IMG/VR virus record: IMGVR_UViG_2778261375_000003
Direction: 5' to 3' (one strand)
Length of the DNA stretch: 64,000 nucleotides
Source of the DNA: a virus
Lineage: Duplodnaviria; Heunggongvirae; Uroviricota; Caudoviricetes
The notes beneath the pieces were generated by a model. That model saw only the letters and a program-made list of their open reading frames with translations, made no database searches and was not told where the DNA came from. The first letter of the stretch is position 1; every line of letters starts with the position of its first letter. Positions 6,895 through 57,833 of this stretch are shown piece after piece. The position numbers were made by a program, and so were the translations under genes.

Positions 6895-7289
6895 AATTAT
6901 CTCCATTTTTACAAATGAATTTTGTCGATGCGGTGCCTGGTGCCTCCAGGTGACGTTAACCAGTTAACAATTAACGCCGGATAATCCACCCATAACACTG
7001 ATGCTTTTAACTGTTCCGCGTGCGCTTAGCCGCATTCACCGCATCACAAAATTCACTTTAAAAAGGGGCGGCAGGGCAGCCACGGAGTAGAACTGATGCC
7101 GCCAAAGACTAGACACAGCAATGTCGTTATTTACAACCGGAGGCGCACTCCCACCATTTAAATTTAACAGACAAGACCGACTCTTTATGAATACCGGAAA
7201 TGCGCCTTCGTGTTGTGCGCCTGTCTTTTTACCACTTCAGGCTCGGTGGTATACTGGAGTTCTCACACAACCAGTAATAAGGTATTCCG

Positions 7290-7915: not shown

Positions 7916-8377
7916 CTACTGGTTACGTTTCTTTAGTGCCAGCATGTTCTCGAAGGCTTCCTCGTAGAGCTTGTTTAGTCCACGTAGCTGGTTAAGGAGT
8001 TTGGCTTTTTCTGACGCAGGTAGAATCTCGAAGAGGTTAAGTAACTCAGCCTGTTCTTCATTGACCAGCCTCCATCCTTTGCCTGAAAAGCTATCATCAT
8101 AAGTATCTGATGATCTTACATAATTCATTAAGTCTTTAAGGTCTTCTCGAATGTCCTCTGGTTTTACCTTTAACAGAGCCGCAAATTTTAGCGCAGCGTC
8201 GGTATTTACCGGTATCTTGCCGTTCAGATACTGGCTAACGGTGCCTTGAGATTCGAATCCCAACAACTCAGCCGCCAGCTCTTGAGTCAGCTTCAGCTCT
8301 TTTTTTCTTGCATTCCATGCGGCTTTTAAATTCTTGCTCGCTTCTGGAGTTGCAATCACTTCGCGTGTTTTTTTCAT
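7916..8377 (-). CDS. racR: RacR-like HTH repressor
   Basis: 153 aa with XRE-type HTH (LTQELAAELLGFESQGTVSQYLNGK); divergent from a Cro-like gene; position equals RacR in Rac. Confidence 0.7.
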   Translation of the reverse strand: MKKTREVIATPEASKNLKAAWNARKKELKLTQELAAELLGFESQGTVSQYLNGKIPVNTDAALKFAALLKVKPEDIREDLKDLMNYVRSSDTYDDSFSGKGWRLVNEEQAELLNLFEILPASEKAKLLNQLRGLNKLYEEAFENMLALKKRNQ

Positions 8378-14015: not shown

Positions 14016-14203
14016 AAACGGTTTGCGGGAAAAGGAGAGTTAAGTAGAATTGCAGCGGGTGCTTGAGGCTATCTGCCTCGGGCATGAACACCAACGGCAG
14101 ATAGATAAAAGCCCCACCCGACTATAAATCGAAGTGAGGCCCCTATATGCTCGTCACATATAGATTGCCTCTTACGGACCGAAAGGTCAAGGAGAAGCAG
14201 GCT

Positions 14204-14359
14204 ATGAAGCAGCAAAAGGCGATGTTAGTCGCCCTGATCGTCATCTGTTTAACCGTCATAGTGACGGCACTGGTAACGAGGAAAGACCTCTGCGAGGTAC
14301 GAATCCGAACCGGCCAGACGGAGGTCGCTGTCTTCGTAGACTACGAACCTGAGGAGTAA
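14204..14359 (+). CDS. hok: Hok/Gef-family type I toxin
   Basis: 51 aa MKQQKAMLVALIVICLTVIVTALVTRKDLCEVRIRTGQTEVAVFVDYEPEE, near-identical to recalled HokD/RelF; in-frame upstream ATG at 14147 could act as a mok-like leader. Confidence 0.9.
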   Translation: MKQQKAMLVALIVICLTVIVTALVTRKDLCEVRIRTGQTEVAVFVDYEPEE

Positions 14360-16313: not shown

Positions 16314-16339
16314 CTCAATCTGTTATCCGGGGCTATATT
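16310..16339 (+). promoter_or_regulatory. Candidate late promoter pR'
   Basis: TTGACT (16310-16315), 18-bp spacer, TATATT (16334-16339), overlapping the Q stop codon. Confidence 0.4.
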
Positions 16340-16400
16340 CCTCACGCGCCAGCAAAATCTGGCGTCGGGATTGGCGTCCTGGATAGAGACCGCGACAGAT

Positions 16401-16422
16401 ACACGCCGCGAGCGTGTTTTTT
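16401..16422 (+). terminator. Candidate tR' terminator of a short pR' leader RNA
   Basis: acacgccgcgagcgtgt hairpin plus tttttt, about 75 nt downstream of the predicted pR' start. Confidence 0.5.
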
Positions 16423-16583
16423 ATTGTCGTATGCACGCGCACATCTGAATTATGGTGGGCTGTGTGGGGGCGGAGAGATCCGCGCCGGTCGGTTTCCCGG
16501 TTACGCCAACCCTGCACAGTTCACCACCAGATGATTGGCGTCGTCGGTGGTGAGTTATTAAGAAACCACCAGAGGGCGTCATT

Positions 16584-17195
16584 ATGACAACTCAAATTTC
16601 TGTTGAAACTCTCTCCCCGATCACCCATAACCAGATTCCTGTTATTACCACCGAACTTTTGGCGCAGCTTTACGGCACTGAGCCGGTGCGCATTCGCCAG
16701 AATCATCATGAGAACAAAGTACGCTTCGTTGAAGGGAAACACTTTTTCAAAGTTGTTGGTAATGACCTTAAAGAATTGCGGGTAGCTTTAAACTACTCAC
16801 AAAATTTGCGGGTTACTTTAAGTAACTCACAAAATTTGCAACCATCTTTAAGAGGGTTACAAATTTCCCCGAAAGCCCGCTCCCTCATCCTCTGGACAGA
16901 ACGCGGAGCAGCCCGTCATGCCAAAATGCTCGAAACCGATCAGGCGTGGGATGTGTTCGAAAAGCTGGAAGACTGCTATTTCAGACAAAAGGATCCGTCA
17001 GCGCCAGCTTCATGCCAGAAAAGTTACGACACGCGAGTTCTCTGTTATCAGCGAGGCGGTGTCACTGTTTCCACAATTCAGTTGCGGGATGATGATATTG
17101 TTATTTCCCTTGAGTCATGGCTGGAACTGGCGAGAGCCAATGGTTGGTTTGTTGTTCGCAGAGATAAACTGGTGGAAAGGCTGATGCAGCTTTAA
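16584..17195 (+). CDS. ORF6N-domain protein (antirepressor-like), with internal 30-bp tandem repeat
   Basis: N-terminus PVITTELLAQLYGTEPVRIRQNHHENKVRFVEGKHFFKV fits remembered ORF6N pattern; 30-bp unit repeated about 2.5 times at 16776-16865. Confidence 0.55.
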   Translation: MTTQISVETLSPITHNQIPVITTELLAQLYGTEPVRIRQNHHENKVRFVEGKHFFKVVGNDLKELRVALNYSQNLRVTLSNSQNLQPSLRGLQISPKARSLILWTERGAARHAKMLETDQAWDVFEKLEDCYFRQKDPSAPASCQKSYDTRVLCYQRGGVTVSTIQLRDDDIVISLESWLELARANGWFVVRRDKLVERLMQL

Positions 17196-40055: not shown

Positions 40056-40828
40056 TGGCGAAAAATGACTTTAAAGCGTTTGCAACGGATCGAAATGCCA
40101 ATGTTATATCGCAGGAGGAATGGGAAGCGTTGCCCGCGCTTTTATCCGGATTTACAGCAGGGAAAGCCTCCAGTGCGCAAGTCAATAAGGTTATTCGGCA
40201 GGCCAGCTTTATTGCTGCAGCTCTGGCCCAGTTTGTAAGTGATAAAACGCAACGGGATGTGCTTGATAATGGTGATCTGCCCGGTTTTGTTGAATTGCTG
40301 GGATCGGGGTTTGCTGTTGAATACCTGAGCCGCAAGAATCCGTTTGGTGATATCAAATCGGATGGCACGGTGAAAACGGCTCTCGAAAACCTTGGTTTGG
40401 GAGAAGGTTCGGCATTACCCGTTGGTGTGCCTGTCCCGTGGCCTTCCGCCACTCCGCCAACAGGCTGGCTAAAATGCAATGGTGCGGCTTTTTCTGCTGA
40501 AGAATACCCGGAACTGGCAAAGGTTTATCCGACAAATAAATTGCCTGATTTACGCGGTGAATTTATTCGTGGATGGGATGATGGGCGTGGGGTGGATTCC
40601 TCTCGTGGTTTGTTGACATCTCAAGACCATTTATTTGCTTCTCATGGGCACTGGTTTGACAAGTACTATGCGCTAACAGGTTTTGATACAACGGGAGGTC
40701 GGTTCGTAGTTACGGCTGATGCTTTCGGGGAACTTATTAAGGCAAATTCAATTTCTACGGTATCGGTTGGTGGTTCTGAAACCCGGCCGCGCAACGTCGC
40801 ATTTAACTATATCGTGAGGGCAGCCTGA
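40055..40828 (+). CDS. Tail fiber protein (short, Stf-like C-terminus)
   Basis: C-terminus ...[10 protein letters not shown]...[12 protein letters not shown]...[11 protein letters not shown] parallels recalled lambda Stf C-terminus; ATGA overlap with previous gene. Confidence 0.7.
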
Positions 40829-41430
40829 TGAATAAAGCCGTATTAAATAACGAACTCATTGCCATAAAAGCGGGAGACATTACCATTTATAATTATGATG
40901 GTGAAACGCGGGAATATATTTCCACATCAACTGAATATCTTGCGGTTGGCGTCGGTATACCGGCATGCTCCTGTTTAGATGCTCCTGACTCATATAAAGC
41001 TGGTTATGCAATCTGCCGTTCTGCAGATTTTAACTCATGGGTATATGTGCCAGACCACCGTGGTGAAACGGTATATAGCACTGAAACAGGAGAATCAAAA
41101 GAAATCACAGCTCCGGGTGATTACCCTGAAAATACAACCACTATCGCCCCGTTAACGCCATTCGATAAATGGGATGGTGAGAAATGGGTGACCGATACTG
41201 AGGCACAGCATTGCGCCGCAGTAGACGCGGCAGAAGCACAGCGTCAGTCACTGATTGATACTGCAATGGCTTCCATCAGTCTGATTCAACTGAAATTGCA
41301 GGCCGGGCGGAAGCTGACGCAGGCAGAAACCACCCGACTTAACGCTGTGCTGGATTACATTGACGCGGTGACGGCAACAGATACCAGCACCGCGCCGGAT
41401 GTCATCTGGCCTGAACTGCCGGAGGCGTAG
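40828..41430 (+). CDS. Tail fiber assembly protein (Tfa)
   Basis: 200 aa after fiber gene; C-terminal ...LDYIDAVTATDTSTAPDVIWPELPEA. Confidence 0.75.
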   Translation: MNKAVLNNELIAIKAGDITIYNYDGETREYISTSTEYLAVGVGIPACSCLDAPDSYKAGYAICRSADFNSWVYVPDHRGETVYSTETGESKEITAPGDYPENTTTIAPLTPFDKWDGEKWVTDTEAQHCAAVDAAEAQRQSLIDTAMASISLIQLKLQAGRKLTQAETTRLNAVLDYIDAVTATDTSTAPDVIWPELPEA

Positions 41431-41842
41431 GCCATTCAATATCTGGCGCACCGGAAGTATCGACCAGTTCCAGTGCGTCCAGGTAATCCAGCCACAAATT
41501 ATATTGCGCCAGTTCGTCACCTTTCAGACGACCAATAGCCGCTTTACCAGGCCATTGTTTACTGTTCATATAATCGTTGGCCTGATTAATCAATTGCTGC
41601 TTCTCCAATTCGGCTGCAGCAATTTGTTCCTCATGTGTTGGTGGTGGAATTTCGGACCATGCAGGAAAACCATTTTCTCCAGCGATACGGATTTTTCCTT
41701 TCGGCGGTAATCCGGAAAACTCAATATACACTTGCTCATCAACTTCAACAGCATCATCTGGCCATGAGTCAGCTTGAGTGTAATCCTCTTTCATCCCCAG
41801 CGGATAGAAAGAGTTTGTAGTCGCGGAATATATGTAATTCAT
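41402..41842 (-). CDS. Tail fiber assembly protein (Tfa), second copy, convergent
   Basis: 146 aa; C-terminal ...LDYLDALELVDTSGAPDIEWPTPP; 3' end overlaps the plus-strand tfa by 29 bp. Confidence 0.75.
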   Translation of the reverse strand: MNYIYSATTNSFYPLGMKEDYTQADSWPDDAVEVDEQVYIEFSGLPPKGKIRIAGENGFPAWSEIPPPTHEEQIAAAELEKQQLINQANDYMNSKQWPGKAAIGRLKGDELAQYNLWLDYLDALELVDTSGAPDIEWPTPPAVQAR

Positions 41843-41863
41843 TTTTCACTCCATATAGCTAAA

Positions 41864-43798
41864 TTAACAGCCTAACGCTAAAAATGAAGCGCCGAGGCCA
41901 GGAGTACTGGCTCTGGATATAAATTTAACCGGGTCGGGACTAAAACCTGCACAGGCAATATAACCAACAGCCCCGCTATCTGGTGTGTAGTCTTGTGAGA
42001 CCAAAACACGCAGACATCTGTTTGGAAATGCAATCGGGAAATGGGTTACTACATCCTGTGCAATGCCTGGTGCGCCGATTGAGCCCCACTGAAGAATAAA
42101 ACCTGATGGTAATTTTTGATATCCAGTACCTGAAACAGAAAGCGTGAAGCTACCCATATCAGGTATCTGATTCGCCCCTGTCCCTACATTCCTTTTAGCC
42201 GCTTCTCCCAAACCAAGGTATTGGATAACGGCCAGTGTGCTTGTTTTAGCCAGAATATCGCGACCGACTGACGTTAAATCAGTCTGAGCTACCGTATCCT
42301 TACCAGTGAAATAAGGCAGTTTGTTTGCACCAGTCGCAAGGGCAGCGAGAGCGGTTAAAGTTGCATCCAGAGGCTGTTTGCCTGCCAGCGCATTTGTCAT
42401 TGTTGTCGCAAAGTTCGGGTCATTGCCAAGTGCTGCGGCAAGCTCATTCAGGGTATCAAGAGCTTCTGGTGATGAACCAACCAATGCGGATATGGCAGCT
42501 CTTACATAAGCGGTCGTAGCAATCTGCGTGTTATTCGTACCCTGTGCAGCGGTAGGCGCAGTAGGGACACCCGTTAATGCAGGGCTTGCCAAAGGCGCTT
42601 TGAGAGCCAAGGCATTGTTGATAGTTGTGCTGTAATTCGGGTCGTTATTGATCGCAGCAGCTATTTCTTTAAGCGTATCCAGTGTGCCAGGCGCACCGTT
42701 GATAAGTGCAGTTATAGCTGCCTTAACAAAGGCTGTATTTGCGATCTGCGTGTTATTCGTACCCTGTGCAGCGGTAGGCGCAGTAGGTATTCCCGTTAAT
42801 GCAGGACTTGCTAAAGGAGCTTTAAGAGCCAGAGCATTGTTGATAGTTGTGCTGAAATTCGGGTCGTTATTGATCGCAGCAGCTATTTCTTTAAGCGTAT
42901 CCAGTGTGCCAGGTGCACCGTTGATAAGTGCCGTTATAGCTGCCTTAACAAAGGCTGTATTTGCGATCTGCGTGCTATTTGTACCTTGCGCTGCCGTCGG
43001 CGCGGTTGGCGTTCCTGTCAGACTCGGGCTTTCTATTGGCGCTTTGGTATCAGCCAGATCTTTTATAGACTTAACAGCTTTAGGGGTAGCCGCCATTGTT
43101 TCGCTGTCGCTGTTAGTTGCGCTACTGAGCTGAACTAATCCCTTTTGCGTTGTGCTTGCATCCTGTGCCGTATACTTGCTTTTCGCCAGATCGTAGGCTT
43201 TTTTAACTGCCAGCGAACTTGCAGCAACATCACTTCTGGTACTGGTTACAGAGTCTGAAATATCAATGCCGATCGAGCGGTTGATACGCTCGGATGTATC
43301 AATCATCTCCTGGGTAATGGCAGATACACTAGCAGGGATATTCACCGTACAAACAAGCAGCTCCCCATCTCCTAACTGATATGAATCGGTATAGGTTCTG
43401 GCAACAAATTCAGCCGCATGAATATGTGACGCGGTATTCACCTGGTAGGTATCTTCTCCAAGGAGGTATCTTCCCTTCAGCACAATTGCATATTTCTTGC
43501 CTGCACTAAGTGCAAGAGAAATATCCTTACGTTGCTGAATAGTTACCTGGTAAAATTCACCAATATCCACCGACGCCGCGCCTGCGGTTTTATCACCATC
43601 CACTGAGGTAATTAACAGGTTCATCCCACCGCCAGGCTTAGGTAAGAAACCGGCATAAAATCCCGGGTCAACAATCCCCCTGAATTTTCGGTTTAGCGCG
43701 GCTGACAGATATGGTTCGTGGTATTGCACATCGGCCACCAGAGCCAACGACTCGGATGATGGGTAAGTAACCGATGTAACAACTGTAACGTCATTCAT
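41864..43798 (-). CDS. Side tail fiber protein (Stf-like) with internal tandem repeats
   Basis: Start set at MNDVTVVTS; contains ...[25 protein letters not shown]... and ...[35 protein letters not shown]... blocks shared with lambda Stf / P2 H as recalled. Confidence 0.8.
42540..43030. repeat. Tandem coding repeats (about 222-bp unit) within tail fiber gene
   Basis: Near-identical DNA at 42641-42660 and 42863-42882 and surrounding; encode repeated [57 protein letters not shown] units. Confidence 0.75.
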
Positions 43799-52886: not shown

Positions 52887-53426
52887 CTACCACCAACTGC
52901 TAGCTTTCTTCTCTCTAGCTTTTCCTTCGCTTTGCAGTAAATCTTTACTTCCTGTAGAAATATTTCTATTTGCATCAGCCTCAGACTGAATTACATCTGT
53001 CTTAGCTGCTCTCTCCTTCAACTCCTGCTCTATAAAATCGTTTTCTCGCTGGACACGAGCCGCTTTTGCTTGCAGTTCGAGCTTCATGCTTTCGAGTTGC
53101 AGCTTGCGAAGCTCATCCTCATAAGCTTGATCTCGCTTCTTGTCATTTGCTAGCTCGGCTTCTCGTTTCGCTCTACGTTCATTTTCTGCAGCAACACGCT
53201 GTTTTTCGCGTGCAGCAGCGGCAGATGCTGCTTTTTCTCTTCTAATACGTTCAGCTTGTGCTTGTTGGCGAATAAGTTCTTTTCTGGCATCCTCAGCTTG
53301 CTGCTCTTTAGCTCGCCCTTCATTTTCCGCTTGAGCAATAGCAGCAATTTGACTTTGCAACGAGTTAGCCAAGGCAGTGCCTACACTAAACGTAGAAAAG
53401 ATTAGAAATAAAATAATTTTATTCAT
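52887..53426 (-). CDS. Secreted coiled-coil protein (Lys/Glu/Ala/Arg-rich)
   Basis: Signal peptide MNKIILFLIFSTFSVGTALA then long charged helical region; AT-rich codon usage. Confidence 0.55.
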   Translation of the reverse strand: MNKIILFLIFSTFSVGTALANSLQSQIAAIAQAENEGRAKEQQAEDARKELIRQQAQAERIRREKAASAAAAREKQRVAAENERRAKREAELANDKKRDQAYEDELRKLQLESMKLELQAKAARVQRENDFIEQELKERAAKTDVIQSEADANRNISTGSKDLLQSEGKAREKKASSWW

Positions 53427-53429
53427 AAA

Positions 53430-53951
53430 TTATTTCTTTTCTGGACAAGTAGCATTTGGCTGAATTCGAGTTTCATTATCTTTAGTTGAAATAAGCACAG
53501 CAAGCCCCGTTGTAAACTGGCATGCTTTACCAACTTGAGTTGAAGTGAACACCTTAGTTCCTTCTTTATAAGTCAGTGAAACACCTTCAACAATTGTTTT
53601 ATCACTAACCAAAGAACCAGCCGCTGCACCAAGAGCCGCACCACCAGTACCGCCAGCTACAGCACCCAGTGTCGATGTGCCTTTAACATTATAACCGGCA
53701 ACGCCCCCAGCAACAGCTCCCAGTACCGCACCAAATGTCTGTGCCGCTTCTTTATTAGCTTTATTATCAACTTTCACTTTAGCTGGAAGCACAGAGATAA
53801 TATTGACTGTCTTTGTTTCCTGCTTCGAATTCAATTGAGCGGTATCATAAACATCGGCAGCATAATCAGCACCGCTAGATTGACACCCAGAAAGAAGAAT
53901 TGCAGATACAACAAGAGCGCATAAAGTATACTTTTTAGACATAAGAATCAT
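53430..53951 (-). CDS. Lipoprotein with glycine-zipper domain (SlyB-like)
   Basis: Lipobox LLSGC; GAVLGAVAGGVAGYNV...GAVAGGTGGAALGAAAGS; start may be 53951 or 53942. Confidence 0.6.
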   Translation of the reverse strand: MILMSKKYTLCALVVSAILLSGCQSSGADYAADVYDTAQLNSKQETKTVNIISVLPAKVKVDNKANKEAAQTFGAVLGAVAGGVAGYNVKGTSTLGAVAGGTGGAALGAAAGSLVSDKTIVEGVSLTYKEGTKVFTSTQVGKACQFTTGLAVLISTKDNETRIQPNATCPEKK

Positions 53952-54563
53952 CCCAGAAAAACAAAAACCGGCGAGAAGTTACCACGAGAACGGAAAGTAA
54001 ACAAGAATACTCCCATTGACTTATATCAATTAATCAACTTTTTATAAGCTATCCCTAACTTATTGTGTATAGCTGAAAAGTCAGAGACAAGTTCACCATC
54101 TGCATTATTTCTTAAGTTAATAGTTTATTGCTAACTTAATTTATGTATCGACTATTGATATCCATCTTAAAGTTACAATATCCCTCTGCATTATTTTTCA
54201 TCACAAATAATATATCTATTGCACTACACTCACCTGCTCTAATAAATTTGTATTTTTAAGTCACAAATGCTATCTTTTCGCATCATATTGACCTTTTAAT
54301 CGTTCAGGCTTATAGTTCCGCCGTCGTAGCAAATTCTGCGACCGGGTTTAGCAGCCTGAATGATTGTGCGGACAGCCGCAGATATCCGATATTGCGGTAT
54401 TTTTGTGTCCGTAAAACCGTGTTACGCCCAAATTATGGTGGGGCGTGATGGGGAGGCTTCGGCCTGCTGGTTTCACAATCGCCAGTCTGCTAACCCCGTC
54501 ACGTCCTGCCACCTGTTTAGCAGCGGGTAGCAGGTTGTTAAACCTGATTGTGAGGCCGTAACT

Positions 54564-54785
54564 ATGGTTAATGCCAATCCTTGCGCACGCCAAGAATTCA
54601 TCTGGCGTTTCTATTCCTGTAAAAAACACCACTATCACTTCGTCATCGCAGCAACAGAAGACGAAGCACGCTCTCAATTGCCTGATGGCCCCTGCATTTT
54701 TACTGCCCGTTTTTCAACTAACTCGCGCAATTCACTTAGTTACTGGAACCTCCCCTTCTCTGCCGACGTTCAGGGGGATTTATGA
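54564..54785 (+). CDS. Icd-like small protein (putative cell division inhibitor family)
   Basis: 73 aa; EFIWRFYS...HFVIAATEDEARSQL...TARF fits remembered Icd-like pattern; gagg RBS; ATGA-coupled to antirepressor. Confidence 0.4.
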   Translation: MVNANPCARQEFIWRFYSCKKHHYHFVIAATEDEARSQLPDGPCIFTARFSTNSRNSLSYWNLPFSADVQGDL

Positions 54786-55825
54786 AAAAACCTCTCGTCA
54801 CCCGTAATGAAATAGCCGAAGCGATCGCCCTGCATACAACCTGTATGCCGACACGGGAGATCCCCGGCGCAATTGCCAACTATTTCATGATAACCAGACG
54901 TTTTTATACCCGAACAGATAAGGCTGTGATCAACAAGCTACTGATAGCCGAGATCAGGGATTATTTGATTGAACAAGGACGTCTACGTTACGCAACAGTG
55001 GCAGCAGAAATGAGAAAGGAGGCGCGCAGAATGACCGGTAATAATTTGAATGTTGAAAAACCAGCACCTGTTGCTTCAGCTACGCCATCACCAGCTGTGA
55101 ATGTTATCTCCAACACTGGAGACACAATCGACAGCCAGACACTGTTAAAGATGGTCAATGAAGCTCGTAAGTTATGTGGGGAACCAGAGGTTCGGAACAA
55201 CAAATTCATCGAAAAAATACTCGACGAATTAGAAGGTGAGGACGGTTACACAAAAAGTGCAACCGTGCCGCCAGGTGGCGGTACGCCTATGGTTGTCATA
55301 ACCATGACCTACAAACAAGCCCTGCGAGTCGCCGCACGCGAATCAAAAGCCGTCCGCCGTTCGCTGATCGACAAACTGGAAGAATTGCAGCAGGCAAACT
55401 CCCCTGCCCCATCGATCCCCCAAACATTACCAGAAGCTCTACGCCTGGCTGCCGAGTTGGCAGAACAGAAAATGCAGCTGGAACAACAGCTGGTGGCCGC
55501 CGCTCCTAAAGTCGATTTTGCCGACCGGGTATCAGTGGCTAATGGAATCCTGATCGGGAACTTTGCAAAGGTCGTTGGACTTAAGCAAAACGCCCTTTTC
55601 TCATGGTTGCGCCAGAACGGCATTCTCATGGCTTTTGGTGCGCGCAAAAACGTACCGCGCCAACAGTACATCAACGCCGGGTATTTCACGGTGAAAGAAG
55701 TGGTGCTGGATGATGAAAATGGCTACCAGATACGGCTGACGCCCCAATTAACGGGTAAAGGCCAGCAGTGGTTAACTCGCAAGCTACTTGATGCTGGTTT
55801 GTTAAAACCAGTAGCAATAGGTTAA
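54782..55825 (+). CDS. Phage antirepressor with KilA-C/ANT C-terminal domain
   Basis: C-terminal 130 aa (LPEALRLAAELAEQK...GYFTVKEVV...TGKGQQWL) match the ANT/KilA-C pattern and are paralogous to next gene. Confidence 0.7.
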   Translation: MKKPLVTRNEIAEAIALHTTCMPTREIPGAIANYFMITRRFYTRTDKAVINKLLIAEIRDYLIEQGRLRYATVAAEMRKEARRMTGNNLNVEKPAPVASATPSPAVNVISNTGDTIDSQTLLKMVNEARKLCGEPEVRNNKFIEKILDELEGEDGYTKSATVPPGGGTPMVVITMTYKQALRVAARESKAVRRSLIDKLEELQQANSPAPSIPQTLPEALRLAAELAEQKMQLEQQLVAAAPKVDFADRVSVANGILIGNFAKVVGLKQNALFSWLRQNGILMAFGARKNVPRQQYINAGYFTVKEVVLDDENGYQIRLTPQLTGKGQQWLTRKLLDAGLLKPVAIG

Positions 55826-55837
55826 CAAAAGAAAAAA

Positions 55838-55863
55838 ACCTGCCAGCAAACTGGCAGGTTTCT
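55838..55863 (+). terminator. Hairpin terminator after first antirepressor
   Basis: acctgccagcaaactggcaggt hairpin followed by ttct; weak U-tract. Confidence 0.45.
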
Positions 55864-55989
55864 GAGCAGATCGACCAACCCGATCTGGATCGAGTTAGAA
55901 AAATTTGCTCTAATAAATTTCGTTTTCTAAGTGCAAAGAATCACCATTTCGAGCTGGTGATTGAAGGTTGATGCAAATTTGGAGAAAAA

Positions 55990-56790
55990 ATGCAACAAAC
56001 ATTCAATGCGGATATGAATATATCAAACCTTCATCAAAATGTCGATCCTTCAACCACTCTGCCTGTTATTTGTGGTGTTGAAATTACGACCGACCGCGCT
56101 GGCCGTTACAACCTTAATGCTCTACACAGAGCGAGCGGACTCGGTGCCCATAAAGCGCCAGCTCAATGGCTAAGAACGCTGTCAGCCAAACAGCTCATCG
56201 AAGAGCTTGAAAAAGAAACTATGCAGAATTGCATAGTTTCGTTCGAAGGCCGTGGCGGCGGCACTTTTGCCCATGAATTGCTCGCTGTGGAGTACGCAGG
56301 CTGGATTTCTCCCGCATTTCGGCTGAAGGTAAACCAGACATTTATCGACTATCGAGCCGGAAGATTACAACCAGCTATTCCGCAGAGTCTCCCTGAAGCT
56401 CTCCGTTTGGCTGCCGACCTGGCAGAGCAAAAGCAACGGCTGGAGCAAAAAATGCTTATGGATGCACCTAAAGTCGAATTCGCCGAACGCGTTGCTACCG
56501 CTAGCGGGGTTCTAATCGGCAACTATGCCAAAGTGCTCGGCCTGGGCCAAAACTATCTCTTCACCTGGTTGCGTGATAACGGAATTCTGATCGCAACCGG
56601 TGAACGCAGGAACGTCCCCAAACAAGAATACATATCTCGTGGGTATTTCACCCTTAAAGAAACCGTGATCGATACAAGCAATGGAAGCAGGATTTCTTTC
56701 ACGACTCGTATAACCGGCAAAGGTCAGCAGTGGCTGATGAAGCGATTGCTTGATGCTGGTGTGCTGGTACCTGTCGCGGCAACGCGCTAA
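55990..56790 (+). CDS. Phage antirepressor, KilA-N plus KilA-C domains
   Basis: N-terminal KilA-N-like region (...NLNALHRASG...AQWLR...FEGRGGGTFAHELLAVEYAGWISP...); C-terminal ANT domain paralogous to previous gene; ggagaaaaa RBS. Confidence 0.75.
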   Translation: MQQTFNADMNISNLHQNVDPSTTLPVICGVEITTDRAGRYNLNALHRASGLGAHKAPAQWLRTLSAKQLIEELEKETMQNCIVSFEGRGGGTFAHELLAVEYAGWISPAFRLKVNQTFIDYRAGRLQPAIPQSLPEALRLAADLAEQKQRLEQKMLMDAPKVEFAERVATASGVLIGNYAKVLGLGQNYLFTWLRDNGILIATGERRNVPKQEYISRGYFTLKETVIDTSNGSRISFTTRITGKGQQWLMKRLLDAGVLVPVAATR

Positions 56791-56819
56791 CAGACGTAGT
56801 AAGAACCACCAGCATTGTA

Positions 56820-57665
56820 ATGCTGGCTAAAGTCACTTTCCTGAGCTGTATAACGATGAGCGATTTTACTTTTTCTGGCTATGAATTGGCCTGCTTTGTA
56901 ACACACTCCGGTCTATCCCGTAGCGCCGGGCATATCCTGTCGCAATGTGCAAATCTCGCGGCAACAACCAGTGAATACTTCATTCACAAGCCTCACCGCC
57001 TGATCGCGGCAGAAACTGGTTATAGCCAATCAACCGTCGTTCGTGCATTCCGTGAAGCTGTAAACAAAGGAATTCTGTCTGTAGAGATTGTTATCGGCGA
57101 TCACCGTGAACGTCGCGCTAACCTGTACCGGTTTACACCATCCTTTTTGGCCTTCGCACAACAAGCCAAAAATGCGCTGATAGAAAGCAAATTAAAGATC
57201 TCTTCAGCGGCAACCAAGGTTAAAGCTGTTCTCGCTAAGACATTGGCTTTATTTAATTTTTTATCCACACCCCCATGTCAAAATGATACCCCCTCCCCCT
57301 GTCAGGATGACGTGGCAATAAAGAATAAGAAGTCACAAGTTAAAAAAACAAAAAGATCAGTTTCCGGCGGTGCCGGAACGACCAGCCTCAAAAAATTGAC
57401 TTCATGGATCGCTAAGGCAAAAGCAAAGGCTGACAATCTGCGGTTATCCAAAAAACGCACTCAAAAACATGAGTTCAAGCAGAAAGTAGAGGCGGCTGCG
57501 CGGAAATATGCTTACCTGAAGAACAAGCGTTCGCCTGATATTGGCGGGATATCAAACTTCGATAACCTACCGCATTGCATGACGGTAAACGAAGCTCTTA
57601 ATGCGGTTTTAGCCAAAAATAAAGATAACGAACAATGGGGTATACCGGCAGGATTCAGAGGGTAA
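56820..57665 (+). CDS. Winged-HTH DNA-binding protein (possible replication/regulatory)
   Basis: HTH-like GYSQSTVVRAFREAVNKGIL; basic low-complexity middle; C-terminus ...WGIPAGFRG echoes YdaU C-terminus; start may be 56856. Confidence 0.45.
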   Translation: MLAKVTFLSCITMSDFTFSGYELACFVTHSGLSRSAGHILSQCANLAATTSEYFIHKPHRLIAAETGYSQSTVVRAFREAVNKGILSVEIVIGDHRERRANLYRFTPSFLAFAQQAKNALIESKLKISSAATKVKAVLAKTLALFNFLSTPPCQNDTPSPCQDDVAIKNKKSQVKKTKRSVSGGAGTTSLKKLTSWIAKAKAKADNLRLSKKRTQKHEFKQKVEAAARKYAYLKNKRSPDIGGISNFDNLPHCMTVNEALNAVLAKNKDNEQWGIPAGFRG

Positions 57666-57833
57666 TGAATTGCTCTAATTATAACCATGCATACTTTCAA
57701 CACCTCTAGTTTGCCATGAGGCAAACTCATAGGTGTCCTGGTAAGAGGACACTGTTGCCAAAACTGGACGCCCCATTATTGCAATTAATAAACAACTAAC
57801 GGACAATTCTACCTAACAATAAGTGGAGTTAAC

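Follow-up and report, generated by a model that had tools for sequence, protein, structure and literature searches.

The region at 53952–56790 of the window (the 64-kb stretch of viral DNA analysed here), taken with the sequence downstream of it, almost certainly comprises two successive operons of a P1/P7-like phage-plasmid, immI and then the lytic replicon, with immI specificity of the P7 type, as judged from alignment with the reference phages. The phage-plasmid that carries it was assigned to the genus Punavirus. Over 53400–57700 the window is 98% identical to phage P7, and the P1 reference aligns only from 54235 on, with 97% identity there. As the sequence consists of the long-studied immI operon and the beginning of the lytic replicon, the feature is an ordinary one that has been explained previously. 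The main regulator of the region is the c4 antisense RNA. The immI operon, c4, icd and the Ant–C1 interaction have been described for P1 (PMC8198154), immI and P1/P7 heteroimmunity are treated in PMC6906374, and P53/Op53 and kilA-repL are described in PMC9948254. All of these genes are non-essential for lytic growth (PMC10695390). The observations made from the sequence in the initial annotation were correct, and the system to which they belong was already known.

Results

The intergenic region (53952–54563; 612 bp) is flanked by a lipoprotein gene on the minus strand and by icd on the plus strand, and its G+C content is 30.7% in the first half (53952–54257) and 50.0% in the second. In the P1-like part of the window, where the mean is 46.7% G+C, equally AT-rich windows of 306 bp make up 0.56%. 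The divergent region of about 600 bp with an AT-rich first half that had been described from the letters alone is therefore real. The lipoprotein gene (53430–53951, minus strand) encodes an outer-membrane protein of the upf50.5 type, 100% identical to P7 Upf50.5 and with only weak, below cut-off Pfam matches (glycine zipper, TraT); it is the first gene of a leftward pair, upf50.5/upf50.0, that occupies the place of simABC in P1. The AT-rich spacer (53952–54232, 31% G+C) is of the P7 type, being about 99% identical to P7 and missing from the P1 reference. Within it are the two copies of a direct repeat, CC(A/C)TCTGCATTATTT, at 54096–54110 and 54182–54196, and a weak leftward promoter-like site at 54218–54190 in a promoter scan; the promoter from which the lipoprotein pair is transcribed leftward presumably lies in this spacer.

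Immediately beyond the spacer lies the C1 repressor operator Op51 (Oc4), CCTGCTCTAATAAATTT (54233–54249, plus strand), which matches the C1 operator consensus at 15 of 17 positions and agrees in position with the operators annotated in the P1 and P7 genomes. Matches to this consensus occur only twice in the 64 kb (54233 and 55904), with 0.19 expected by chance. Op51 overlaps the upstream promoter P51a (P2c4; 54247–54276, plus strand), which was mapped from the P1 annotation via a three-way alignment with P1 and P7 and was not recovered by the promoter consensus scan. The second promoter of the immI layout, P51b (P1c4; 54288–54316, plus strand), follows; it consists of TTGACC, a 17-nt spacer and TATAGT, scores 10/12 in the same scan and coincides with the annotated P1c4. 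A 109-aa open reading frame on the minus strand (54348–54677) was treated as spurious because it overlaps c4 and icd.

The c4 gene (54437–54513, plus strand; P7 specificity type) sits between the promoters and icd, as it does in immI. The 77-nt RNA scores 69.6 bits against the Rfam C4 family (RF01695; gathering score 45) and folds at −44.9 kcal/mol (z −5.7), with b' (UUCACAAUC) in a hairpin loop and a' (CUGCUAA) unpaired. Its upstream targets (54348–54369, plus strand), a1 (TTAGCAG, 54348–54354) and b1 (GATTGTGC, 54362–54369), are recognized by RF03163 (c4-a1b1) at 55.5 bits against a gathering score of 46.7, and its downstream targets (54517–54553, plus strand), a2 (TTAGCAG, 54517–54523) and b2 (GATTGTGA, 54546–54553), were mapped from the P1 annotation. 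On direct reading, a1 and a2 are each complementary to a' at all 7 nt, and b2 is complementary to b' at all 8 nt; an exact-match scan of the c4 loops against the targets recovered the 8-nt b2, 7-nt b1 and 7-nt a1 matches, and a repeat search found a1/a2 and b1/b2 as direct repeats (D4 and D5). b2 adjoins the icd Shine–Dalgarno sequence GAGG, after which comes the icd ATG. The immI arrangement is present: two target pairs complementary to a' and b', and b2 located at the ribosome-binding site of icd. Wherever the two reference phages diverge within a', b' and the four targets (a1, b1, a2 and b2), the window carries the base of P7 and not that of P1; on this alignment the recognition loops are P7-type and not P1-type. 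Release of the 77-nt RNA by processing would be expected in this element as well. Transcript mapping for small RNAs had been suggested for the AT-rich half, which would miss the known c4 RNA, as this lies in the G+C-rich half. A permissive Rfam search of 53800–56200 found no known RNA in the AT-rich half; its matches were limited to C4, c4-a1b1, isrK below threshold and two chance microRNAs.

The cell-division inhibitor gene icd (54564–54785, plus strand; 73 aa) matches NCBIfam phage_ICD_like at 52.7 bits (cut-off 25), and over its 73 residues the product has a single substitution (D72G) relative to P7 Icd and three relative to P1 Icd. The icd TGA stop overlaps the ant1 ATG (GATTT-ATGA-AAAAA, 54782–54785), which together with the family match upholds the earlier reading of an Icd-like gene overlapped with an antirepressor. 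Translation of icd is required for ant expression in P1/P7. The antirepressor gene ant1 (54782–55825, plus strand; 347 aa) encodes a protein with an ANT/KilAC domain (PF03374) at residues 234–336 (106.4 bits, cut-off 25.3) and a match to phrog_63, anti-repressor Ant, at an E-value of 2e-104. Following the annotation of P1 and P7, the nested gene ant2 starts in frame at Met84 of Ant1 (55031–55825, plus strand) behind a Shine–Dalgarno sequence, AAGGAGG, which gives the immI order of a 73-aa icd overlapping ant1 with ant2 nested within it. Ant1 has the length of P1 Ant1 and is identical to it in 327 of 349 alignment columns; against P7 Ant1 (348 aa) 37 of 352 columns differ, mostly at about residues 119–175. 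As a stretch at about residues 133–172 is unlike both P1 and P7, the properties of the protein could differ in detail. No KilA-N match was found in Ant1 in Pfam even at E-values up to 10. Residues 111–244 match phrog_1726 (E 3e-22; the N-terminal part alone, 7e-21), a family also matched by an ORF6N protein at 16584, and the N-terminal module of Ant is ORF6N-like.

Just past the ant stop, a hairpin with a 13-bp G+C-rich stem and a T-rich tail (55834–55863, minus strand; terminator scan) is the probable terminator of the antisense RNA P53as. Promoter P53 (PkilA; 55886–55920, plus strand), mapped from the P1 annotation, is accompanied by Dam GATC sites at 55869, 55882 and 55888 and contains the second C1 operator, Op53, TTTGCTCTAATAAATTT (55904–55920, plus strand; 16/17 match). 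kilA follows (55990–56790, plus strand); its 266-aa product is identical to P7 KilA at all 266 residues, differs from P1 KilA by one substitution (A123T) and carries KilA-N (PF04383) at residues 27–123 (75.4 bits, cut-off 23.8) and ANT/KilAC (PF03374) at residues 152–254 (112.2 bits, cut-off 25.3). Inside kilA lies promoter P53as (PaskilA; 56017–56045, minus strand), with TCGACA, a 17-nt spacer and TATATT, an extended −10, a scan score of 10/12 and the position of the annotated P1 PaskilA; we infer that it drives an RNA antisense to P53 and the kilA 5' end. In the same operon and beyond 56790, repL (56820–57665, plus strand) encodes the lytic replication initiator, identical to P1 RepL at all 281 residues, and contains oriL. 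P53 with Op53, kilA, repL and a P53as within kilA together make up the P1 lytic replicon.

The C-terminal domains of Ant1 and KilA are paralogous and their N-termini differ, as was first proposed: BLASTP aligned the two proteins at 50% identity over 202 aa (E 7e-66), PF03374 is found in both and PF04383 in KilA only. Neither of the findings that had been named as fatal to the proposal was made, since the 347-aa and 266-aa frames are both intact and the C-terminal similarity aligned. The N-terminal parts showed no pairwise similarity (BLASTP E 0.54). Both N-modules, that of Ant2 and that of KilA, match one and the same region of phrog_63, a heterogeneous family; this is not evidence of homology because the family probably contains both proteins. 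Ant2 (264 aa) and KilA (266 aa) are two-module proteins of similar length that have a KilAC C-terminus in common. A structure database search found no solved structures of Ant1 or KilA.

At least 80% of this stretch is present in 415 of 5426 complete Escherichia coli genomes (about 8%), nearly always on plasmids, several of which hold identical 2.9-kb copies. Among the E. coli records listed, the RefSeq features under the match include no RNA genes or operators, and both large proteins are named 'phage antirepressor KilAC domain-containing protein'. We note separately that the initial annotation had missed the c4 RNA, a1/b1 and a2/b2, Op51, Op53, P51a, P51b, P53, the nested ant2 start and P53as.

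Discussion

We propose that the region works as established for P1 and P7, to which it is nearly identical. P51a, repressed by C1 at Op51, and P51b would give one RNA comprising a1-b1, c4, a2-b2, icd and ant1/ant2, from which the 77-nt c4 RNA would be excised. At the ribosome-binding site of icd, the unpaired a' and b' of c4 would base-pair with a2 and b2, respectively, and block icd translation and, as ant1 is coupled to icd by the ATGA overlap, Ant synthesis would be prevented too. Once c4 control is overcome, Icd would stop cell division, and Ant1 with the nested Ant2 would bind C1 and derepress the lytic genes. One derepressed unit would be P53/Op53-kilA-repL, the next operon, in which RepL would start lytic replication at oriL, KilA would be a host-lethal, non-essential product and a countertranscript from P53as would damp P53. 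Rho-dependent polarity, RNase P processing and a P53as RNA of roughly 180 nt belong to the system in P1 and P7; here such an antisense RNA would run on the minus strand from about 56009 to about 55826. For c4 processing, coupling and polarity, Ant–C1 binding and KilA lethality in the present element, this scheme draws on the P1/P7 literature; with 90–94% protein identity to P1/P7, the Ant1/Ant2 complex would be expected to bind and inactivate C1 here. The C1 repressor gene lies outside the 64-kb window, and we assume that the element carries it.

The role of KilA is less settled. The initial annotation had called it a second antirepressor with KilA-N and KilA-C domains, of which the domains were confirmed and the function was not supported: kilA opens the kilA-repL operon, which C1 represses, and KilA is known to be host-lethal and dispensable for replication (PMC8201110; PMC9948254). 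That KilA binds and inactivates a phage repressor is a hypothesis, drawn from a database name that reflects its domains and from a personal communication in PMC8201110, which is the only form in which KilA is called a possible second antirepressor there. One possibility, which we hold tentatively, is that KilAC targets the host, affecting its growth, division or SOS response, and that the phage-specific function lies in the variable N-modules; the lethality of KilA and part of the effect of Ant would then arise through the same host target. The ANT/KilAC domain of Listeria AriS suppresses the SOS response by itself, while its N-domain regulates phage genes (PMC9043618), the KilA-C domain of Gp07 from the Staphylococcus aureus phage phi11 is enough on its own to inhibit the growth of E. 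coli and to make the cells filament (PMC5944126), and P1 KilA is lethal when expressed (PMC9948254). AriS and Gp07 resemble Ant and KilA in having a variable N-terminal regulatory module and a conserved C-terminal PF03374 (PMC9043618; PMC5944126). However, they are distant relatives from Firmicutes phages with N-modules of the AntA/AntB, Bro-N or pRha types, and their described activities, SOS inhibition and growth arrest, are an analogy only for P1 Ant and KilA; the P1 literature examined assigns division arrest to Icd and killing to KilA, and reports no Ant toxicity.

We consider it unlikely that KilA acts, like Ant, as an antirepressor against the phage's own C1, made only after the first derepression so that positive feedback locks in lytic growth. 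In favour of this, Ant and KilA share 50% identity in their KilAC domains, kilA stands directly behind a C1 operator, and ant1 and kilA are the two top-expressed genes of P1vir in the study that mentions the hypothesis (PMC8201110). Against this, the P1 literature examined gives no binding or genetic evidence for a KilA–C1 interaction, and lytic growth is possible without kilA (PMC10695390). A shared KilAC need not mean a shared target, since C1 may be contacted by another part of Ant.

It was also suggested initially that the two antirepressors are aimed at different repressors, possibly for cross-talk between the co-resident prophages. A lambdoid prophage of RacR layout, at ryeA/ryeB, is indeed present in the window, KilAC is common to Ant and KilA while their N-modules differ, trans-acting antirepressors coordinate several prophages in Salmonella (Lemire et al. 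2011, as relayed in PMC4825925), and the personal communication noted above allows that KilA may be a second antirepressor (PMC8201110). Even so, it is very improbable that Ant and KilA are modular antirepressors for different repressors, with at least one acting on that of a co-resident prophage such as the lambdoid one. The first protein is P1/P7 Ant1/Ant2, whose known target is the phage's own C1 (PMC8198154), the only Ant target named in the P1 literature examined, whereas the neighbour has a 153-aa HTH protein (7916–8377) as its repressor. kilA is part of the replication operon under C1 control, outside immI, and is known for lethality rather than induction (PMC9948254). The neighbour has a module of its own (16333–17195) with a c4-like RNA, whose recognition loops are unlike those of the immI c4, and an antirepressor of the ORF6N family instead of the KilAC family; it has no icd. 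Duplex energies of whole c4-type RNAs with each other's leaders were all large, and are uninformative because whole molecules unfold; pairing was judged by exact loop–target complementarity. There is no sequence evidence for a functional link between the two elements. Least probable of all, and barely credible, is that KilA and Ant form a two-member KilAC effector set whose N-modules direct them to different partners. As a separate observation, the P1-like element appears to be joined to the chromosomal lambdoid prophage at a DNA-invertase site (42203–42228), and the junction sequence had no match with one genome per species searched; the join may be a real integration or a mis-assembly across the invertible segment that both elements share.

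We therefore retain the immI and lytic-replicon assignment. As it stands it matters little, being the re-identification of a classic case of antisense-RNA control and antirepression. It is of modest use in typing the element as P7-immune and not P1-immune, in revealing that RNA genes and operators are missing from the RefSeq annotation of the E. coli records listed, and in showing that any role assigned to KilA, or to KilAC domains more widely, is provisional.

The closest known system is immI of phage P7 (AF503408: Op(c4), c4, icd, ant1/ant2, with upf50.5/upf50.0 upstream), which has the same gene order, operator, promoters and c4. All six of its specificity-determining short stretches are the same as here, its AT-rich spacer and both proteins of the lipoprotein pair are identical or nearly so, and it differs from the window at two operator-edge bases. 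P1 immI (NC_005856: Oc4/Op51, P2c4/P1c4, a1 b1, c4, a2 b2, icd, ant1/ant2) has the same architecture, with base-for-base coordinates from Op51 on, but its immunity specificity is another one, with a' CTGTCAA and b' TCACTAAC in place of CTGCTAA and TCACAATC and with targets that match accordingly; upstream it has simABC, where the lipoprotein pair and the AT-rich spacer are found here. In the lytic replicon, Op53, the three GATC sites, P53, kilA, P53as and repL of P1 are all at homologous positions, and there is no notable difference besides the one KilA substitution. More distantly, the IsrK-AnrP module of Salmonella Gifsy-1 and the lambdoid c4-like modules combine, like immI, a structured RNA of the c4 type with a leader in which targets are repeated and with an antirepressor encoded downstream, and the immI leader (a1/b1) gives a sub-threshold Rfam match to isrK (43.7 bits against 50); IsrK is described as activating anrP translation (PMC4825925), whereas c4 represses.

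Gene layout and control elements of the immI-kilA-repL region

The features described at 53952-56790 in the initial annotation are all real, lie where they were placed, and none is a chance pattern. The ORF map has a leftward pair on the minus strand, a DUF5384 gene (52887-53426) and a lipoprotein gene with a signal peptide (53430-53951), followed by a 612 bp gap between 53951 and 54564 and then, on the plus strand, icd (73 aa, 54564-54785), ant1 (347 aa, 54782-55825), kilA (266 aa, 55990-56790) and repL (281 aa, 56820-57665). The divergent AT-rich region is confirmed by composition, as the G+C content of the gap is 30.7% in its first half, the AT-richest part of the surrounding 22 kb, and 50.0% in its second half, against a mean of 46.7% in those 22 kb. 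The proposed icd-antirepressor coupling is likewise present in the sequence, with the TGA stop of the 73-aa ORF lying inside the ATGA at which the 347-aa ORF begins. All proteins of the stretch (the icd, ant, kilA and repL products) are intact; neither larger protein is a pseudogene fragment.

Feature names were taken from annotated P7 and P1 records and moved to window coordinates by three-way alignment. This gives the order of the P1/P7 antirepressor operon, immI: the operator Op51/Oc4 with promoters P51a and P51b; a1 and b1; c4 RNA; a2 and b2; icd; and ant1 with nested ant2. Downstream follow P53 with Op53, kilA with the internal antisense promoter P53as, and repL containing oriL. The mapping is supported by independent scans for RNAs, operators, promoters, GATC sites and Shine-Dalgarno sequences. 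Rfam models matched C4 at 54431-54516 (69.6 bits) and the a1/b1 element at 54310-54362 (55.5 bits), both above gathering score, and a direct-repeat search picked up the a and b target sites as GTTTAGCAGC, present twice, and TGATTGTG(C/A)GG. For the 77 nt c4 RNA, the predicted fold has an energy of -44.9 kcal/mol (z -5.7); it places b' in a hairpin loop and leaves a' unpaired. The consensus operator of the repressor C1 has exactly two matches in 64 kb, at 54233 and 55904, where about 0.19 would be expected by chance. P51b and P53as were recovered at their annotated positions, and the same scan found a strong minus-strand terminator right after ant, placed to stop the P53as transcript. All three GATC sites of P53 are present, and ant2 has its ATG at 55031 with the Shine-Dalgarno sequence AAGGAGG. 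The leader carrying a1/b1 (54323-54404) also matches Rfam isrK at 43.7 bits, below the gathering score of 50; this sub-threshold match suggests that Salmonella IsrK may be its counterpart.

Immunity type and proposed mechanism

Heteroimmunity between P1 and P7 stems from a small number of base differences within immI (PMC6906374). In the three-way alignment, the window has the P7 bases at all six short stretches that differ (a1, b1, b', a', a2 and b2). Its c4 recognition elements are CTGCTAA (a') and TCACAATC (b'), whereas those of P1 are CTGTCAA and TCACTAAC. The AT-rich spacer upstream and both genes of the lipoprotein pair are of P7 type as well.

The mechanism proposed for this element is the one established for P1/P7, as drawn from the literature (PMC8198154; PMC8201110; PMC9948254; PMC6906374) and from older work. 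C1 represses the operon at Op51, and full repression of ant needs c4 too (PMC8198154). We infer the biochemical steps for this element from its near-identity to P1 and P7; the sequence parts themselves are present here. Transcription left under C1 repression would originate at P51b. The operon transcript would carry c4, to be freed by processing (RNase P releases c4), and its a' and b' would then pair with the targets a2 and b2, which lie at the ribosome-binding site of icd. Translation of icd would be blocked and ant with it, the block reaching ant through translational coupling and transcriptional polarity. If produced, Ant1 and Ant2 would bind C1 and lift repression, and Icd would stop cell division. 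Relief from C1 at Op53 would switch on kilA-repL, with RepL firing oriL; KilA would be lethal to the host on expression and dispensable. A countertranscript from P53as, for which promoter and terminator were both seen in the scan, would restrain P53.

A second c4-type module in the neighbouring prophage

Chromosomal DNA makes up the left 42 kb of the window, with SdsR/RyeA at about 500 and, after it, a lambdoid prophage. This prophage carries RalA, DicF and sok, and its immunity region encodes an HTH repressor together with YdaS/YdaT. The known small RNAs lie at 463-607 (SraC/RyeA with SdsR/RyeB), 2169-2347 (RalA), 7066-7117 (DicF) and 14057-14206 (sok). This prophage has a c4-type module of its own (16333-17195), without an icd gene: a leader at 16333-16422 (Rfam c4-a1b1 50.5 bits, isrK 75.5 bits), a C4-family RNA at 16454-16528 by alignment to c4 (Rfam C4 match 16448-16531, 66.7 bits) and, directly 3' of it, a 203-aa ORF6N antirepressor (16584-17195). 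The prophage RNA folds in the same way as c4. Its unpaired elements are UCGGUUUC and GUUACGCC, against UUCACAAUC and CUGCUAA in immI c4, and those of each RNA match its own leader only; the two systems therefore look orthogonal at the RNA level. Antirepressor proteins reportedly act across elements in Salmonella (Lemire et al. 2011, cited in PMC4825925), which provides a precedent; nothing in the present sequence points to such action between these two elements.

Ant and KilA as modular proteins

Domain annotation bore out a shared C-terminal domain with different N-termini: Pfam ANT/KilAC occurs in both the 347-aa and 266-aa proteins and KilA-N in the latter only, and BLASTP aligned 202 residues of the two at 50% identity (E 7e-66). 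The N-terminal parts of Ant and KilA, aligned to each other alone, gave no alignment, and pairwise alignment did not establish a deeper kinship of the Ant2 and KilA N-modules. The middle part of Ant (aa 111-244) matches phrog_1726, as does the ORF6N antirepressor of the window, and Ant2 (264 aa) and KilA (266 aa) thus look like two-module proteins of common layout.

The description as two paralogous antirepressors holds in part. Ant is the classical C1 antirepressor; KilA is called an anti-repressor in RefSeq by domain only. The idea of KilA as an anti-repressor has been given as a personal communication (PMC8201110), and its function is elsewhere stated as not known (PMC9948254). In a CRISPRi screen, c4, icd, ant1, ant2, kilA and repL were non-essential for lytic growth (PMC10695390). 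The KilAC domain of Listeria AriS alone suppresses the SOS response while its N-domain regulates phage genes (PMC9043618), and the KilA-C domain of phi11 Gp07 alone blocks E. coli growth (PMC5944126). From this domain work, the modular architecture is real and already described, and these distant proteins suggest a division of labour other than the one first proposed, of factors aimed at different repressors.

Distribution and the junction with the prophage

Several E. coli plasmids (77-94 kb) and a single chromosome record carry copies 100% identical to 53900-56800. Of 5426 complete E. coli genomes, 415 have 80% or more of this stretch. Matching places number 1183 overall, 1158 on plasmids and 25 on chromosomes; given the latter, this window is not the only case of a P1-like element placed in a chromosome, or mis-scaffolded there. 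The E. coli 'chromosome' record NZ_CM148631.1 (4447822-4478722) has an identical immI-kilA-repL together with P1-type parA/parB/repA.

The P1-like DNA starts at 42203, within a 26 bp invertase recombination site (42203-42228), TTCTCCCAAACC-AA-GGTATTGGATAA. The outer half of this site matches the outer half of P7 cixR exactly, and the inner half and all sequence leftward match a chromosomal prophage. A partner 26 bp cix/pix-type site lies at 40387-40412, and between the two is an invertible tail-fibre segment (40413-42202) flanked by tail-fibre constant parts, that of the chromosomal prophage at left and the P1-type Sc part at right. No invertase gene was found at the 40387-42228 segment. From this arrangement, the point of fusion between the P1-like DNA and the chromosomal prophage appears to be the crossover dinucleotide itself (42215-42216). 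The layout would reflect either a Cin/Pin-type intermolecular crossover between plasmid and prophage (a cointegrate) or a mis-join across a shared segment of about 1.8 kb. P1-like plasmids bearing such a segment exist. Among the complete E. coli genomes of the collection none reads across the junction, and a search of one genome per species gave no match to its exact sequence.

Comparison with P7 and P1

By megablast, 53400-57700 falls in the Punavirus phages: identity to P7 is 98% over the full length, and the P1 reference aligns only from 54235, at 97% identity. KilA is identical to that of P7, RepL to that of P1, and Icd differs from P7 Icd at one residue. Ant1 has 327 of 349 identical columns with P1 and 315 of 352 with P7, the differences clustering at about aa 119-175. 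Within Ant1, a short hypervariable stretch at about aa 133-172 (55178-55297), with small indels, is unlike both P1 and P7 and resembles a variable loop set between conserved segments; other E. coli plasmids carry identical copies of it.

Within the AT-rich spacer, a direct repeat, CC(A/C)TCTGCATTATTT, occurs at 54096-54110 and 54182-54196, 86 bp apart; it is kept in P7 and showed no resemblance to the C1 operator. The lipoprotein has weak, sub-threshold matches to a glycine zipper and to TraT, and the PHROGs label for its family, 'DNA methyltransferase', looks like an annotation error. P7 likewise has the lipoprotein gene, the DUF5384 gene and the AT-rich spacer (52887-54232) in place of the P1 superimmunity genes simABC, its annotated upf50.0 and upf50.5 standing where P1 has simC, simB and simA. 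The spacer is about 99% identical to that of P7 and the proteins of the lipoprotein pair are 100% identical. In each respect tested, the locus corresponds to what has been described before.
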